Of a stretch of 64,000 bases of DNA, positions 34,334 to 39,990 are shown one piece after another. Source of the stretch: an uncultured Clostridium sp. Lineage in GTDB: Bacteria; Bacillota; Clostridia; TANB77; CAG-508. Under the pieces are notes generated by a model. It was not told the origin of the DNA. It did no database searches and saw nothing but the letters and a program-made list of their open reading frames with translations. Each line of letters begins with the position of its first letter. Position 1 is the first letter of the stretch. Made by a program: the position numbers and the translations under genes. The stretch lies in assembly GCA_947426525.1 (NCBI GenBank), contig CANEEJ010000003.1, forward strand, positions 8,241 to 72,240, written 5' to 3'.

Positions 34334-34633
34334 TCATTCTTTTGGAAAATACAGACAAACCAGGCATTTTTCTTTATACTTGGTAATTAATAAAGCTTCT
34401 TTTCCAGGGTGAAAATCATTCTTAAACTGAATCTCCTCACCATTTTGAATAAGCATTGTACCTTTTTTCCCCCATGCGTCTGCAATATCAAAAGTATTTA
34501 CTGTGCTAGATTCTACGTAAACGCCGATGTTTAGCCTTTCAACATTCTTTTGAAGCCAAACCCGGTTTTGGTATTCAATACTCTTGTTTCTTGCATCGTC
34601 TAATACTTTGATTACCCATGTTGTTTGATTCAT
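34334..34633 (-). CDS. Hypothetical protein (99 aa), island
   Basis: ORF with foreign composition and an in-frame CGG at 34564. Confidence 0.5.
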   Translation of the reverse strand: MNQTTWVIKVLDDARNKSIEYQNRVWLQKNVERLNIGVYVESSTVNTFDIADAWGKKGTMLIQNGEEIQFKNDFHPGKEALLITKYKEKCLVCLYFPKE

Positions 34634-34781: not shown

Positions 34782-35426
34782 TCACATATAGAAATCATTA
34801 ATTTTCGAACTCAATGACTTCATAAATTTCATAATTCGTTCCCTTTCTTTTCTGTCATCTTCTTCAAAAGCACCTGCTTCTTCAGCCTTTTGGAGTGCTT
34901 TATCAAAATCGGCATGTAGGGATTCTTTTAATTTTTCGAAATCAATTTCTTTCTTGCAGCGCCATTCTTCAAACTTTTCTTTTGCCCATTCTTCACATAC
35001 TTTTACATAACAAGGACCCATATAATATGAATATTGAAGTTGTTTTTCAGTATTATTGGTAGTCGCTTCTATCACAGCCTTTAAATATTTCTCTCGTATT
35101 TCTATTATTCTTTCATCTTCTATCGTCTGTAAAGAATGATAACAAGAGCAAACGGCTTGTTTGTCTGTCGGTTTTCCTCTAGAACCATATTCTTTTTTTA
35201 GTTCCAGATTGGCAAAACAATTTAAAATAATTGTTTTTATAACGTTCGCCTCCCATTCTGGAAAGTCCTTCTGATTGCATACTCGAACTAACTCAGTTGC
35301 TGGTGCAATCCAATCGTAGTCAGATTTGCTATCTTCTAACACCCGATTATACAATTGCCTTGCTGTTAGTAAATGGATTTTACCATTCCATGCTTTGACT
35401 GCATACCTTTTTTCAAATAAACTCAT
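34782..35426 (-). CDS. Hypothetical protein (214 aa), island
   Basis: ORF with an in-frame CGG at 35345, several Cys residues and an acidic C-terminus. Confidence 0.5.
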   Translation of the reverse strand: MSLFEKRYAVKAWNGKIHLLTARQLYNRVLEDSKSDYDWIAPATELVRVCNQKDFPEWEANVIKTIILNCFANLELKKEYGSRGKPTDKQAVCSCYHSLQTIEDERIIEIREKYLKAVIEATTNNTEKQLQYSYYMGPCYVKVCEEWAKEKFEEWRCKKEIDFEKLKESLHADFDKALQKAEEAGAFEEDDRKERERIMKFMKSLSSKINDFYM

Positions 35427-35640
35427 TTTTTTCTCCTTTCTTGGCTGTTTACTGGTTCTATAAGATAAAACTAAGGAGTAAGTTTTCCTTACTCAATAGA
35501 GATTTAAGGAAATAAGTAATAGAAAAAGCAATTACTTATGTATTGGTATTATACTATTATTTTACATAATTTTCAAGTACTTAATAAAAAAAGCTTTTGC
35601 CATGTGCTATAAATAGCACATGGCATTGATAGTTTTGTAG

Positions 35641-37269
35641 TTATTTCGATAGCAATATTAATTTTGTTTGTTCACATAGTTCTCCTGAAAAGCATACCAT
35701 CTTTCTTTTTTGTGGATTTAGAATGATAGATAGAAAATCGCCAAATTGTTTCACAAAATCTTTGTGATTTTCTGTATCATGAATACTAAATCGAATTTCG
35801 GTATCTCCTGGATGACTATGAGCAAAACCTAAAAATTGAACCAATCCATATTCATCTCGATACACTTCATCTGACCTTGATGTATTCTCGTTTATAATGG
35901 AAACTTCGTCCATTATTTGTTTTATGCAAAAATCATCCATCGTTGCCATATTTCCAGCTCGATTATACAAAATAGTAGGAAATACATACTTAACTAGAAA
36001 AATATCTCCTAATTTGTTTCCCACTAATGCTGTTTGCTGTTCATATAAGTTAATAGGATGATGTTCTCCATAATGAAAACTGCCATGTAATTCTTTGGTT
36101 GCTTGTGGTGTAAAGATGACGGTTTTATCTGCTTCTCCTTTTGCTGGTTCCACAGTATAATGCTGCATTTTTCCATTTTTTTCAACCAACTGCTTTATGA
36201 TTGTTTCATAAGTTACTTCTTCTACTTTCTTCTGGCTGGCTTCTTTTTGGAAAATTTGCTTGTAACAAAATTGTGGTGTTTTTGTTTCGAAATCAAAAGT
36301 ATGAAAGCTATCTCCTTTACAATGCTTCCAATACTCACAGTTTTCACACTGTTTTGCTTTGGTTCGATTTGGGTTTCTATAAAACTCAAATTTTTTTTTC
36401 CAAACCTTGCAAAAATCATCTTTTAAAACATTACCTTGGATTAATTCTTTTCTTCTTGGAATATTCGGGCAGCCAAAGATATCTCCATTTGATAAGACTG
36501 ATGCTACTTGAATCCCTGTGTAACACTTAAATTTCTTTCCGGTTGGGTCTAATGTATTTTCCGTATTACCAAAATAATGTGTACAACTCCATATCACAGG
36601 AAGTGGTGAATTCAAATGTCTTTTCATAAAATCAAAAAGAAAGTAATAATCTTCTTGATTTAGCATTAAATTTGCATTTTCTTTGGCTCTACCAATTGGA
36701 TCAATTCCACTAATTCGAAGTGAATCAATTCCTAAATTGCTTAAAAACCGATATACTTCTGGCAACTCTAAAATATTGTTTTTGGTTGCAATGAAAGTAA
36801 CTTGGATATGTTCCACAAAATTGCTACTTTTAAGTTTTTCGATAGCAGTAACGATTTTATCAAAAGAACCTGGCACATGCCGAAATTCCTCATGAGTTTT
36901 TTTCATGCCATCTAAACTAATCGTAATGGTTGACATGTTTGTTTCTTTCATTTTCTTAATTACATCATCTGTAATTAACATGCCATTTGTTACCAGTCCC
37001 CACTTAAAGCCTAGCCTATTAGCATATCCTGTTATTTCAAACAGGTCTTTCCTCATAAGTGGCTCGCCACCTGTAATGTTTAGCATAATAGCTTTTGTTC
37101 CAAAATTTTTAGCCACATTATCTAACACTTTTTTGAAAGTATCTGGTGATAATTCGTCCTTCTTTCTAGCCGTGCACCTGCTACCACAGTGGTCGCAGAG
37201 TGCATTGCATCGGCTAGTTACTTCAAAAAAGAGCGTATGCAACGGATAATTACTACTTATGTTTTCCAT
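35641..37269 (-). CDS. Radical-SAM/SPASM(twitch)-type enzyme fused to a C-terminal JAB/MPN+ metallopeptidase domain
   Basis: CNALCDHC (CxxxCxxC), GGEPL and a Cys-rich auxiliary-cluster region (CENCEYWKHC). The C-terminal domain has YEQQTALVG ... HSHPGDTEIRFSIHD, a JAMM-like E...HxH...S..D motif. Confidence 0.75.
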   Translation of the reverse strand: MENISSNYPLHTLFFEVTSRCNALCDHCGSRCTARKKDELSPDTFKKVLDNVAKNFGTKAIMLNITGGEPLMRKDLFEITGYANRLGFKWGLVTNGMLITDDVIKKMKETNMSTITISLDGMKKTHEEFRHVPGSFDKIVTAIEKLKSSNFVEHIQVTFIATKNNILELPEVYRFLSNLGIDSLRISGIDPIGRAKENANLMLNQEDYYFLFDFMKRHLNSPLPVIWSCTHYFGNTENTLDPTGKKFKCYTGIQVASVLSNGDIFGCPNIPRRKELIQGNVLKDDFCKVWKKKFEFYRNPNRTKAKQCENCEYWKHCKGDSFHTFDFETKTPQFCYKQIFQKEASQKKVEEVTYETIIKQLVEKNGKMQHYTVEPAKGEADKTVIFTPQATKELHGSFHYGEHHPINLYEQQTALVGNKLGDIFLVKYVFPTILYNRAGNMATMDDFCIKQIMDEVSIINENTSRSDEVYRDEYGLVQFLGFAHSHPGDTEIRFSIHDTENHKDFVKQFGDFLSIILNPQKRKMVCFSGELCEQTKLILLSK

Positions 37270-37287
37270 ATGCTGCTCTCCTTTCGC

Positions 37288-37725
37288 TTACGTTAAATCA
37301 ATGGAACCTGTTGTTATCGTACTATCTTCCTCAGTATACTTTTCAGCCTGGTTAATCGCCTCTTCCACGCTTCTTGCCATAGGACAACCATATAAACATC
37401 TCATAGAGTAAATATCATCATATATAACCTCTCTTGTAAATGGTTCTGGCTCTCCTTTTCGGATGTAAATTAGGCTGTTATCTTTGATACCTAATTCCTC
37501 TATTGAGCGATACTCATCTGTACAGATTTCTCTTAGCTCCTGCTTATTGTCATTTTCTAAGTATACTTTAGTGGTAACATAAGTACTTTGATACGACGAG
37601 ATATGTCCTAAGTCCCGAAGCTGTGCTTTCAATTCTACTTCATTGATACCTGCTAAAATATTTACTCGTGTATATTTCCTCCGATCAAAAGTCACATATA
37701 CTGGTATTGTTTTTCTTGTTGCCAT
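37288..37725 (-). CDS. Small ubiquitin-like (beta-grasp-like) protein 1 with a 60-aa C-terminal extension containing CLYGC
   Basis: 145 aa, paralogous to 38000..38344. The segment YRSIEELGIKDNSLIYIRKG resembles the ubiquitin C-terminal strand and tail. Confidence 0.55.
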   Translation of the reverse strand: MATRKTIPVYVTFDRRKYTRVNILAGINEVELKAQLRDLGHISSYQSTYVTTKVYLENDNKQELREICTDEYRSIEELGIKDNSLIYIRKGEPEPFTREVIYDDIYSMRCLYGCPMARSVEEAINQAEKYTEEDSTITTGSIDLT

Positions 37726-37880
37726 AATGATACTCCTTTCCTATTGGATTTAATGTTTTATTGCTATTAAAAACTACCCTCCTTTTTGAGTTTTACTAGA
37801 TAAGTAATAACTCTTTTTACGAAATTCATTTGTTATGAATTTTATGTAACCATTTTATATGTTTTTAGTGCTTTTGTCAA
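37726..37880 (-). promoter_or_regulatory. Promoter (TTGACA-17-TAAAAT, 37880..37852) plus ~125-nt structured 5' leader, duplicated copy 1
   Basis: Consensus -35 and -10 boxes. The leader has hairpins AAATTCAT/ATGAATTT and GAGTT..AACTC. About 72 nt are ~99% identical to the copy at 38345..38499. Confidence 0.6.
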
Positions 37881-37957
37881 TATTTTTCCCCTTTCATATA
37901 TATACCTCCACTACGGACTTTCACCGATTAGTTAAACAACATGCCTGTCGTACTATA

Positions 37958-37990
37958 AAAACCGATGAATTATAAAAAATCATCGGTTTC
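37958..37990 (-). terminator. Intrinsic terminator after Ubl gene 2 (AAACCGATGA / TCATCGGTTT plus T-run)
   Basis: 10-bp stem, AT-rich loop and a T-run on the minus strand. Confidence 0.65.
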
Positions 37991-37999
37991 AGTCATTAT

Positions 38000-38344
38000 T
38001 TAATCAAGTTTTACAAACACTGTTTTATAGGTTCTTTTTTTCCACATTGGTGTTGTTCCTATTCCTCTAGCATAAATTACACTGTTGGGCATAATTTCCC
38101 ATTCTTTTATAGAACGATAGTCATAGTTACTAATTTCTTTTTGTCCACCTTCTGTATTGTAATATAGTTTTACGGTAGGTGACTTTGAAATATACCCTGC
38201 TTCTTCAAGCATACTTCTTAATTGCATGCCATTTACATCCACTGATATTTCTATGGGACCATATTTTTTCCCATTAGCCATTACATATAGTGGAATACAA
38301 TATACTCCATTTTTGTTTTTCCGTGCAAAATACGCTTTTGCCAT
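38000..38344 (-). CDS. Small ubiquitin-like (beta-grasp-like) protein 2
   Basis: 114 aa, ~30% identical to 37288..37725 (IPLYV, LRSMLEEAGYIS, YRSIKEWEI, NSVIYARGIG). In-frame CGG at 38323. Confidence 0.55.
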   Translation of the reverse strand: MAKAYFARKNKNGVYCIPLYVMANGKKYGPIEISVDVNGMQLRSMLEEAGYISKSPTVKLYYNTEGGQKEISNYDYRSIKEWEIMPNSVIYARGIGTTPMWKKRTYKTVFVKLD

Positions 38345-38499
38345 AATGATACTCCTTTCATTTTTGAATTAATGTTTTGTTGTTACAAAAAACTATCCTT
38401 CTTTTTGAGTTTTACTAGATAAGTAATGACTCTTTTTACGAAATTCATTTGTTATGAATTTTATGTAACTATTATATATACTTTTGAAGATATTGTCAA
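38345..38499 (-). promoter_or_regulatory. Promoter (TTGACA-17-TATAAT, 38499..38471) plus conserved 5' leader, duplicated copy 2
   Basis: Same architecture and near-identical leader core as 37726..37880. Confidence 0.6.
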
Positions 38500-38621
38500 T
38501 CTTTTTATTTAGAAATCAAATTCTCAAAAATGCGTTGCAGTAAAAAAATAAATATGCTACACTATGTATATCGTAAACACAGTGTTATTTATACTAAAAA
38601 TTATAATTTTATGGAGGACTA

Positions 38622-39990
38622 ATGATGAATGATATAAAAAACAAATTAACAAATAAAAGTCGGTATAACGCTTATAGCACTTGTAATTACAATTATTATT
38701 CTAATAATTCTTGCAGGAATCTCTATCTATATGTTATTTGGACAAAATGGGCTAATCTCTAAGTCAAGTACTGCTTCCATAGAACAGAAAAAAGCAGAAT
38801 ATTTTGAGGAAATACAAATAGAAATAGCAGATGAGCAAATAGAAAGATATGAAAAATACAAAGATACTTCATTTATAACAAGCCTATCGATTAGATTATC
38901 ACCCAAAAATAAAACTTGGATAGCTTCCTCCTTAAAATGTGCTGAAGAAAATGGTGGTTTTGAAGAAAAACCTAATGATTATGAAAACAATATATTACTA
39001 ATAACAACAAAAGAAGATTATGAAATAGTAATAGATATAGAAAACAATAAATTAATAGCCTCAATAAGAGAGGATAGTTATAGAAAAGCAAGAAAACAAT
39101 ATACTGTCACATATGATGCAAATTCGGGATTTGGAACTGTTGAATCCCAACAAACAAAACAAGGATTTAATATCATATTAAGAGAAAACGCATTTTTAAA
39201 AGATGATTTTTCATTTGTTGGATGGTCTAAAAATAAAGATGCTATTGATGGAGATGAAGAAATATATTCTGCAGGAAGTAGTATAATAATAGAAAATGAT
39301 ATAATCTTATATGCCATATGGAAAAAAGAAACATATACAATAGAATTTAATGAAAATGGCGGAATGGGAACAATGGCCCCAATAAAAGTTGCTAAAGGAT
39401 TAAGTACAAAATTAACGCAAAATACATTTTCAAGAATAGATTATAATTTCAAAGAATGGAATACCCAAGCTGATGAGAGCGGAGAAAATTATAAGGATGG
39501 TGAAATACTAATTCCTTCTATAGATATGACTTTATTTGCAATATGGGAACCTAAGATATATCAATGGAAAAAATATAAAGTACTTACCAAAACAGTTTAT
39601 ACAAGTTCAGAACTTAGTGGTACATCTATGAGAATTTCTAGTGGTAGCTTTGATTGCTATTCTAATTATACATTTTCAGAAACATCTGGATATGTAATGA
39701 CTGACTATATTGGACGTTATGTAGTTGATACTACAACAGATTTAGACAAATATATAGGAAGTTATGCATTTTTTTCATATGCACAGTACAGTAACTGCTT
39801 ATGGAAAGTTATAAGTGTTGAATCTAATAGATTGAGATTTCAATTAATGGCTTCGCAATCTTCTAGTAGTAAAACAGAAGAAGAATTTGTTGAAATTGTA
39901 GAAACTAATTCAAGAAACTTTTATGTAGAGAACCAAGTATATTATGAAAATTCAAATAGATATAAATACAAATATATTGGAGAAAAATAA
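38622..39990 (+). CDS. Pilin-like N-terminal anchor protein with two Listeria-Bacteroides (Flg_new) repeats; a +1 shift at in-frame CGG (38661..38663) joins the start to ORF 38731..39990
   Basis: GGAGGA RBS, then ATG...MMNDIKNKLTNKS and AGT CGG TAT. Skipping the C gives GITLIALVITIIILIILAGISIYMLFGQNGLISK, a typical prepilin-like hydrophobic N-terminus. Repeats YTVTYDANSGFG...GWSKN and YTIEFNENGGMG...FKEWNT follow. Confidence 0.8.

Follow-up and report, generated by a model that had tools for sequence, protein, structure and literature searches.

What substrate does a radical S-adenosylmethionine (rSAM) enzyme act on when it carries a JAMM-type peptidase domain, and what part is played by the ubiquitin-like (Ubl) protein encoded directly upstream of it? 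This question is raised by the minus strand of a 64,000-nt stretch of DNA from an uncultured Clostridium sp. (assembly GCA_947426525.1, contig CANEEJ010000003.1; the whole stretch is called the window here), where five open reading frames (ORFs) had been proposed to form an island consisting of an rSAM-JAB fusion enzyme, two Ubl-like substrates (W145 and W114) and two further genes. All five ORFs exist as described. We conclude that the enzyme and W145 probably constitute a self-contained two-gene cassette for peptide or protein maturation, resembling those for ribosomally synthesized peptides with post-translational modifications (RiPPs), in which the rSAM domain would modify a Tyr-Gly pair and the JAMM domain would cut the same substrate. 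The system looks like an already known kind, an rSAM/SPASM peptide maturase, to which a fused JAMM peptidase and a C-terminal substrate tag are new. The enzyme, W145 and their parts are as follows (aa, amino acids).

35641..37269, minus strand: bifunctional enzyme, 542 aa (rSAM core, SPASM region, linker, JAMM/MPN+ peptidase domain), from the ORF list, domain searches and alignment
36745..37224, minus strand: rSAM core, residues 16-175, from Pfam PF04055
37186..37209, minus strand: CX3CX2C motif (CNALCDHC), C21/C25/C28, invariant in the alignment
36265..36585, minus strand: SPASM auxiliary-cluster region, residues 229-335, from Pfam PF13186 and invariant columns
35644..36156, minus strand: JAMM/MPN+ metallopeptidase domain, residues 372-542, from a profile comparison with the PDB, an AlphaFold2 (AF2) model and Foldseek
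36040..36042, minus strand: candidate catalytic Glu, E410 in 'YEQQxALVG', from the alignment
35776..35820, minus strand: JAMM zinc/catalytic motif H484-S-H486-x8-S495-x2-D498, invariant and aligned with the HTHP..S..D block of AMSH-LP
37288..37725, minus strand: W145, precursor/substrate protein, 145 aa, stop codon 18 nt upstream of the enzyme start, from the ORF list and family alignment
37450..37725, minus strand: Ubl β-grasp domain of W145, residues 1-92, from AF2 and Foldseek
37381..37395, minus strand: core of the LYGCP tag, L111-Y-G-C-P115, where rSAM modification and/or JAMM cleavage is proposed to take place, invariant across 36 W145-family sequences
37291..37380, minus strand: 30-residue 'follower' tail past the tag (MARSVEEAINQAEKYTEEDSTITTGSIDLT), from its conservation in the Ubl class; predicted to be disordered

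The enzyme's N-terminal portion matched the Radical_SAM family in Pfam (PF04055; E=8.4e-22, 78.5 bits against a cut-off of 29.5), and its C21-x3-C25-x2-C28 motif was invariant in an alignment of 29 full-length homologues with identities down to 43%. A SPASM match (PF13186; 24.1 bits against a cut-off of 21.5, E=4e-5) was accompanied by seven invariant cysteines in the same alignment (C229, C249, C267, C308, C311, C317 and C335), arranged as C249-x12-G-x4-C267 and C308-x2-C311-x5-C317, plus C229 and C335. The fourth cysteine of the CX2CX5CX3C block is replaced by an invariant serine (Ser321, in 'GDS'), which hints at an auxiliary cluster whose coordination site is open or occupied by a residue other than Cys (Asp/Ser). 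The top match among solved structures was CteB (1.8e-15). In this structure-database sequence comparison the match begins past the first ~97 CteB residues, and the alignment to CteB revealed no domain like a RiPP recognition element (RRE), or any other extra N-terminal domain, in the enzyme. Substrate recognition must therefore lie elsewhere, and we propose direct binding of the C-terminal tag described below.

Among curated models, TIGR04133 scored best for the window enzyme (279.1 bits, match 5-338). Because the cut-off of 425 is not reached, we place the enzyme in a sister clade rather than in TIGR04133 itself. This NCBIfam hypothetical equivalog, the 'rSAM/SPASM protein of the rSAM/lipoprotein system', is also the best curated model for the JAB-less relatives discussed below, and the lipoprotein theme is shared in that several precursors of the fusion family are predicted lipoproteins; TIGR04133 proteins differ in being ~350 aa long (model length) and in having no JAMM domain. 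The AhbD model reached 162 bits, whereas TIGR04103, which we take to be the splicease-type (PlpX) family, reached 106.6 bits against a cut-off of 725 and scored lower than the AhbD, NirJ or MftC models.

The C-terminal domain is more divergent. Alone, the window domain stays below the Pfam gathering score (Prok-JAB E=0.1, 13-15 bits against a cut-off of 25). Across 30 members of the domain family, 22 matched Prok-JAB only at E<1 (best 7.6e-4) and nine matched JAB. A profile of the 30 sequences, compared with the PDB, matched AMSH-LP (7.7e-5) and also Sst2, an Rpn11 homologue and BRCC36, with alignments spanning the HxH..S..D block ('LGFAHSHP...S..D'). The AF2 model of the domain was confident (predicted local distance difference test (pLDDT) 93.7, predicted template modelling score (pTM) 0.90), and every one of the 50 PDB matches listed by Foldseek was a JAMM/MPN protein (best E=1.3e-8, TMt up to 0.84), including the Caldiarchaeum Rpn11 homologue with ubiquitin (6fnn), BRCC36, CSN5/6, AMSH, Pyrococcus JAMM1/PfJAMM1 (5ld9, TMt 0.84) and a bacterial Ubl-deubiquitinase (Ubl-DUB; 8tyx). 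E410, H484, H486, S495 and D498 were invariant in the 29 full-length and 30 domain sequences, again down to 43% identity. The spacer between HxH and Ser is x8, one residue above the canonical E...HxH-x7-S-x2-D, and in our reading of the alignment 'YEQQxALVG' corresponds to the canonical catalytic Glu position ahead of β2. Judged by profile and predicted fold, this is a divergent JAMM/MPN+ subfamily. The fusion put forward in the original prediction thus stands on Pfam matches, invariant catalytic residues, the domain profile and AF2 with Foldseek, and the C-terminal domain has a complete E/HxH/S/D signature, with only JAMM/MPN folds among the matches listed.

Searching 1.84 billion cluster representatives with the domain profile yielded 16 matches at E<=1e-30, 49 at E<=1e-10 and 235 at E<=1e-3. 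The strong matches were the C-termini of ~540-aa rSAM fusions or fragments thereof; matches of ~200 aa, considered as stand-alone JAB proteins of this subfamily, look like fusion fragments from short contigs and were rejected as such. To judge from these searches, the subfamily is small and found mainly as an rSAM fusion. A related JAB clade (P0260, P0262, P0268, P0270, P0271, P0275 and P0278; E ~1e-27 to 1e-17 against the profile) carries the JAMM domain N-terminally in proteins of 376-462 aa, followed in P0260 by a long low-complexity tail.

The fusion family comprises more than 100 full-length clusters (90% clustering) with 42-95% identity to the window enzyme, drawn from Clostridia of the human, ruminant and rabbit gut and from one archaeal metagenome-assembled genome (MAG). 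A genome scan returned the full fusion at 28 loci and a ~360-aa relative that has no JAB domain at 52 (loci are numbered with the prefix L). The fusion loci belong to gut and rumen MAGs of Clostridia, Lachnospiraceae and Ruminococcaceae, and to one Methanocorpusculum sp. MAG (L027, contig DALTWG010000001.1, 3483-5599), which encodes a full-length fusion and two tagged precursors, CLYGCPNPTELSGVTL and CLYGCPEPKELVSVSL; its archaeal binning reflects either inter-domain transfer or a binning error. The homologues bear no functional name in their source annotation, 'radical SAM protein' at most. As had been surmised for this architecture, the literature searched held no description of an rSAM enzyme with a JAB, JAMM or MPN domain; searches for the motif strings LYGCP, YGCP and YGPP returned noise only, and TIGR04133 and TIGR04134 were essentially absent. 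A 2023 review of RiPP proteases names no JAB, JAMM or MPN (PMC10885120). In the literature searched, the fused JAMM peptidase is unprecedented. New peptide chemistry has rSAM/SPASM maturases as a main source, and this family of more than 100 clusters has no characterised member.

The substrates are indicated by what is encoded beside the enzyme. In 27 of the 28 genome fusion loci, an adjacent ORF on the same strand contains the motif [LYF]YGCP; the 28th (L036) has LYGAP on a zinc-ribbon protein. The tag also occurs in the precursors of the window and of the metagenome loci L001, L003 and L006. In the metagenome loci, the product of the gene directly upstream of the enzyme invariably closes with (C)LYGCP and a short tail, whereas its remainder differs: L001 encodes four transmembrane (TM) peptides of 64-76 aa and two zinc-ribbon proteins, L006 a 57-aa TM peptide and a zinc-ribbon protein, and L003 a W145-type protein. 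The [LYF]YGCP pattern served to collect 48 distinct precursors, so that the presence of YGCP in all 48 follows from selection; a hydrophobic residue followed by Tyr-Gly (ΦYG) is present in 49/49 once the LYGAP case is added. The tag consensus reads C-[LY]-Y-G-C-P-N-[SA]-K-K-[VA]-x-K-L-[QN]-L-x-[KR]-K-x-Y-[RK], and the tail past the tag Pro has 16 residues in most short peptides (range 11-34). The N-termini, by comparison, are hypervariable and include lipobox signals, TM helices, amphipathic helices, zinc-ribbon proteins and the Ubl domain. Most precursors of the family are peptides of 50-100 aa that lack a Ubl domain and have a signal, TM or amphipathic segment at the N-terminus. Each fusion locus has one to six precursor genes, adjacent to and co-oriented with the enzyme gene (28/28 genome loci); the six of L025 lie in tandem and share near-identical tags on differing N-terminal parts. 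None of the precursors was recognised by a curated model.

From this comparison of loci, the substrates share the C-terminal [LY]YGCP tag rather than the Ubl fold. The CLYGC motif noticed earlier in W145 is real, being the invariant LYGCP of the W145 family, while the Ubl fold and its 'IRKG' tail, to which it had been attached, are not the substrate determinant; the idea that a Ubl fold defines the substrates is not upheld, as most precursors are non-Ubl proteins and the tag is what they share. Reading the tag as a CxPxR site like that of the anaerobic sulfatase-maturating enzyme (anSME) was tried and rejected, because C-P-x-[SA]-[KNRQ] places Pro at +1 and not at +2 as expected for C/S-x-P-x-R; TIGR03942 (anSME) was not among the 25 models listed for the window enzyme.

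W145 itself belongs to a family of 128 homologue clusters, and in L003 and L009-L017 a W145-type gene directly precedes that of the enzyme. The family alignment falls into four segments: a conserved N-domain, a variable linker, the invariant LYGCP (111-115) and a conserved acidic tail. In the AF2 model, residues 1-92 form a ββα(α)βββ fold (pLDDT about 85) and the tail is disordered (pLDDT about 50). Foldseek matches of the N-domain were almost exclusively Ubl β-grasp proteins (best 4.7e-5, TMt 0.65-0.78), among them the TBCE Ubl, ubiquitin variants, UBX, SUMO and ISG15, which bears out the β-grasp fold predicted for this protein. Behind β5, Gly91 is nearly invariant and E94-P95 invariant, followed by the variable linker, which places the tag ~20 variable residues beyond the β-grasp; no Gly-Gly follows β5 anywhere in the family alignment. 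YG[PC]P occurs only once in the six-frame translation of the window, in the W145 tag. A 'P-G-E' element precedes the tag in two unrelated precursor classes, as D-P-G-E located 4-5 residues before YYGCP in short peptides (L021-L032) and as PGEPEP after the β-grasp in the Ubl class (W145 residues 90-95); it is possibly a second recognition or cleavage site, or a coincidence. In L006 (3858-5271), the precursors are preceded by a second small rSAM protein (247 aa, Fer4_12 and Radical_SAM), which we read as activase-like, and by a 228-aa Cys-rich protein, neither of which was seen in other loci.

The relatives without a JAB domain help to separate the parts of the tag. These ~360-aa enzymes are 45-52% identical to the window enzyme over residues 10-345, and TIGR04133 is again the best model (305-330 bits, below the cut-off of 425). 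None of their loci has an adjacent ORF with [LYF]YGCP. Instead, [LVM]YG[PIVTSM]P was found in an adjacent, usually downstream protein at 21/51 JAB-less loci, often two to three times per protein (e.g. FVYGIP...EVYGIP...KVYGIP) and with 25-fold enrichment over other ORFs of the same loci. The x position of this ΦYGxP motif is never Cys. Near-C-terminal placement of the motif thus tracks with the JAB fusion, as does Cys at position x apart from the single LYGAP. Across both sets of loci, Φ-Y-G-x-P appears as the clade-wide target or element; as it is common to the sister clade, we infer Tyr-Gly to be the centre of the rSAM chemistry, with the tail and possibly also the Cys related to the JAMM step. 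For the larger TIGR04133-like clade, ΦYGxP as target offers a functional lead.

The JAB-less enzymes (L035, L038-L088) come from Bacilli, Clostridia and Patescibacteria MAGs. Their partners, for example at L038 5024-5683, L045 4998-5357 and L051 5048-5662, are membrane or repeat proteins with one to three [LVM]YG[PIVT]P sites, an uncharacterised enzyme-substrate pairing in itself. Both sister enzymes inspected, L038 and L045, also have 'GDS' in place of the fourth SPASM cysteine (residues 308-321, ~36307-36348 in the window).

In the mechanism that we propose, the enzyme would recognise the C-terminal Φ-Tyr-Gly-Cys-Pro tag together with its tail of 11-34 residues, presented here on a ubiquitin-fold protein. 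The rSAM/SPASM domain would carry out radical chemistry at the invariant Tyr-Gly, and the fused JAMM zinc peptidase would then cut the precursor, either removing the follower tail at or near the Gly-Cys bond or releasing the N-terminal module. Known JAMM enzymes cut behind Gly, and the junctions cut by Mec+ and QbsD are Gly-Cys. Candidate cut sites in W145 are the bond between Gly113 and Cys114 or a position at Gly91 after the β-grasp, in which case the Ubl domain would be a leader; more generally, this domain would be one of several N-terminal modules that can stand in for each other. Domain identities, conserved catalytic residues, the association of enzyme and tag, the modularity and the lack of other conserved partners are results of the comparisons. 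Inferred from them are action at the tag itself, Tyr-Gly and not Cys as the target of the radical, peptidase activity of the JAMM domain on the same substrate, and the order of events. Out of the three options initially offered for this locus, a RiPP-like pathway with a Ubl-fold leader is the one that the evidence favours. A target as short as Φ-Y-G-C-P plus a short tail, on peptides and folded proteins alike, could be of use as a portable modification or cleavage handle in protein engineering.

Several points weigh against this proposal. Both modification and cleavage are deduced purely from the anatomy of the enzyme and its precursors, and no characterised maturase stands out as a near relation; the best model for the enzyme, TIGR04133, is itself uncharacterised. 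The single LYGAP case shows that Cys is dispensable, which argues against a chemistry that strictly requires a thiol. Export signals are present in some precursors, whereas rSAM enzymes work in the cytoplasm. A canonical JAMM enzyme cleaves behind the Gly-Gly that ends a Ubl, whereas here P2 would be Tyr and the tag lies well past the β-grasp. Finally, what is conserved in a RiPP precursor usually serves recognition and is not the modified core, so the tag could be a recognition element only.

As to the chemistry at Tyr-Gly, a precedent is provided by the spliceases (PlpX/PcpX/RhaX/RasX), rSAM enzymes that act on X-Tyr-Gly, including LYG in RasA, accept whole proteins and can process several XYG sites per precursor (PMC11414181, PMC11626197). 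The invariant Φ-Y-G of the fusion precursors and its repetition in the sister-clade partners resemble this situation. Different from the spliceases, no Y-protein or leader helix was identified in the fusion system, which adds an invariant Pro at +2 after Gly, a Cys, a C-terminal follower and the fused JAMM peptidase. By analogy, a splicease-like excision of tyramine at ΦYG, yielding an α-keto-β-amino acid, is a tentative possibility; if it occurs, the product would carry an α-keto-β-amino-acid warhead. A Tyr-centred cross-link (a three-residue cyclophane Y-G-x or a Tyr-Cys link) is held just as tentatively, and the remaining weight goes to other chemistry, for example at the Gly Cα. We think it rather unlikely that the locus represents a new maturation class altogether, with rSAM backbone or Tyr chemistry at a portable C-terminal Φ-Y-G-C-P tag, the JAMM domain as finishing enzyme and the Ubl as leader or cargo in the W145 branch. 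If true, this would connect the prokaryotic Ubl/JAMM toolkit with radical-SAM RiPP chemistry for the first time.

The JAMM domain might instead be a surrogate for the missing RRE that holds the tag and tail, leaving proteolysis to unlinked host proteases. This is unlikely in our view. The enzyme does lack an N-terminal RRE, the tail shows the conservation within each precursor class and the constrained length that a binding epitope would have, and binding-only MPN domains are common, with CSN6 and Rpn8 among the fold matches. However, binding-only MPN- domains usually lose catalytic or zinc residues, and in this family all of the MPN+ residues (E, HxH, S, D) persist to 43% identity. Moreover, the JAB-less sisters are paired with internal ΦYGxP sites, so a docking domain is not generally needed.

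Quite improbable is a scheme in which the tag is recognised only, the rSAM domain modifies the hypervariable N-terminal part and the JAMM domain removes the follower. The conserved C-terminal segment next to hypervariable N-termini would fit, as would the tandem precursors of L025 with their near-identical tags, reminiscent of the 'one enzyme, many cores' logic of prochlorosin-type systems. Yet the N-terminal parts, which range from signal peptides to folded domains, share no consistent residue that an rSAM enzyme could target, and the repetition of ΦYGxP two to three times per protein in the sister clade points to a site that is modified rather than to one docking signal.

We rate as highly improbable that W145 and W114 are modifiers or sulfur carriers whose extension is trimmed to Gly by the JAMM domain, with the rSAM domain replacing E1/E2 chemistry or loading sulfur or another group. 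The β-grasp fold of W145, the similarity of the JAMM model to Ubl-processing enzymes (5ld9, 6fnn and 8tyx), the nearly invariant Gly91 and the invariant E94-P95 speak for it; the Gly-Cys junction is also like the GG-CF end of QbsE and the CysO-Cys adduct, both cleaved by JAMM enzymes. On the other side, most family precursors have no Ubl domain, there is no GG terminus, the tag is separated from the fold by ~20 variable residues, W114 is tagless and found without an adjoining enzyme, and no E1/E2 or ThiF/MoeB-like gene is conserved nearby. The original remark that no E1/E2 partner is present extends to the family, as none was conserved in 32 neighbourhoods, nor was E1/E2 found among the called genes of L001-L008. 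The ubiquitin-fold domain would thus have been recruited into a context without E1/E2. Least credible of all is an anti-phage defence module, as had been suggested, or a toxin module, since the support for this, weak PADLOC matches to prokaryotic viperin (pVip) models (E about 1e-22) and a small insertable module with presence/absence polymorphism, is outweighed by the facts that the pVip matches reflect generic similarity of the rSAM core and score far below SPASM-maturase models, that PADLOC gave no specific defence model for the enzyme and no match at all for the small proteins, that no nuclease, toxin or sensor domains are present, and that the contexts hold housekeeping genes (rdgB and rplU/rpmA here, pheST in L003) and no defence genes.

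Our preferred reading, a maturase acting at the tag, can be set against two further groups of known systems. In Ubl-JAMM pairs (CysO/Mec+, QbsE/QbsD, SAMP/JAMM1, Caldiarchaeum ubiquitin/Rpn11 and the Bil Ubl-DUB), a β-grasp gene likewise adjoins a JAMM/MPN+ peptidase, and the C-terminal extension of W145 could be trimmed in a similar way; here, by contrast, there is neither an E1/E2 or adenylating partner nor a GG, the JAMM domain is fused to rSAM/SPASM, and the Ubl is optional. The SPASM maturases (CteB/SCIFF ranthipeptides, MftC/MftE mycofactocin, PqqE/PqqF and SkfB) share the rSAM/SPASM architecture, the small adjacent and co-oriented precursor gene, and the logic of modification followed by proteolysis. 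The system described here differs from them in the missing RRE, in its C-terminal recognition or modification, in substrates that include folded proteins, and in the fused JAMM-type peptidase.

The extent of the unit was defined by a related strain without it. The following features concern the cassette as a whole and the genes around it.

35592..37956, minus strand: whole cassette, ~2.37 kb (promoter, leader, precursor gene, enzyme gene and terminator), from blastn against L090; absent from the related strain L090/L091
37726..37880, minus strand: promoter-like site TTGACA-17-TAAAAT (37880-37852) and conserved ~125-nt 5' leader, from sequence signals and leader comparison
35598..35625, minus strand: intrinsic-terminator-like hairpin of 12 pairs plus T-run, beginning 16 nt past the enzyme stop, from sequence signals
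38000..38344, minus strand: W114, 114 aa, Ubl-only paralogue of the W145 N-domain without tag, from homology
34782..35426, minus strand: 214-aa gene, from the ORF list
34334..34633, minus strand: 99-aa gene, from the ORF list

By blastn, L090 1426-1822 corresponds to window positions 38359-37957 and L090 1818-4162 to 35591-33263, which puts the breakpoints at 37957/37956 and 35592/35591. The flanks are 84-94% identical, and L090/L091 have the gene order DUF4097, W114-like, 215 aa, 99 aa, Ham1 and L21, with neither precursor nor enzyme: a clean presence/absence polymorphism. Both junctions fall within terminator T-tracts ('TTTTTAT'). No transposase, integrase or recombinase was found at the cassette borders, and a mobile-element signature was dismissed, the borders offering only a 7-nt T-rich microhomology in the terminator tails. 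Within ±4 kb in 32 loci, no neighbour beyond the precursor families is conserved, be it a transporter, a further peptidase or E1/E2. In L009, the closest relative, the cassette is followed by ~1.1 kb of other DNA and then a W114 homologue, i.e. it lies on the other side of W114 than in the window. As far as these comparisons reach, the conserved unit is the pair of W145 and the enzyme, a separately transcribed, insertable module, and the five-gene island shrinks to these two genes.

W114 is 32% identical to the N-domain of W145 (E=9e-15), in agreement with the ~30% identity first noted for the two small proteins, and the similarity is confined to that domain; its β-grasp fold is assigned by homology only. 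No tag or decayed tag was detected in or downstream of W114. Only two relatives were found, with one other cluster among 5.8 billion proteins, and the metagenome scan contained no homologue. As a second substrate, the role first given to it, W114 was rejected: it has no tag, and the other cluster sits in a locus of the related strain that has no enzyme beside it. By its distribution, it is a lineage-specific neighbour outside the conserved unit. Among the fusion loci, L009 alone has homologues of both W114 and the 214-aa gene; it does not have the 99-aa gene. The 214-aa and 99-aa genes gave no informative domain matches. They were discarded as parts of the system, since they have promoter-like sites of their own, as W114 does, are present without the cassette in L090, and are not found in more distant fusion loci.

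The promoter and 5' leader of W145 (37726-37885) recur upstream of W114 (38345-38504) with ~88% DNA identity, compared with 32% protein identity. The leader contains two hairpins, a second Shine-Dalgarno sequence and an invariant AAGGAGGGTAG..GTAACAA block, and compensatory changes in 6/8 pairs support the hairpin directly after the -10 box. The leader is kept in 9/10 Ubl-type precursor genes of different genomes; it lies also at L009 3380-3544 and precedes the precursor genes of L003 and L012-L016. No Rfam match was obtained for it; the leader could be an operator palindrome or a cis-regulatory RNA.

Beyond the 99-aa gene follow housekeeping genes for a Ham1/RdgB-type protein, L21 (rplU), L27 (rpmA) and IMPDH. 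Beside W114, on the plus strand (38731-39990), lies a gene for a 419-aa protein with Listeria-Bacteroides repeats (PF09479, E=2e-21). Both GC and AT skew switch sign in the 38-40 kb bin.

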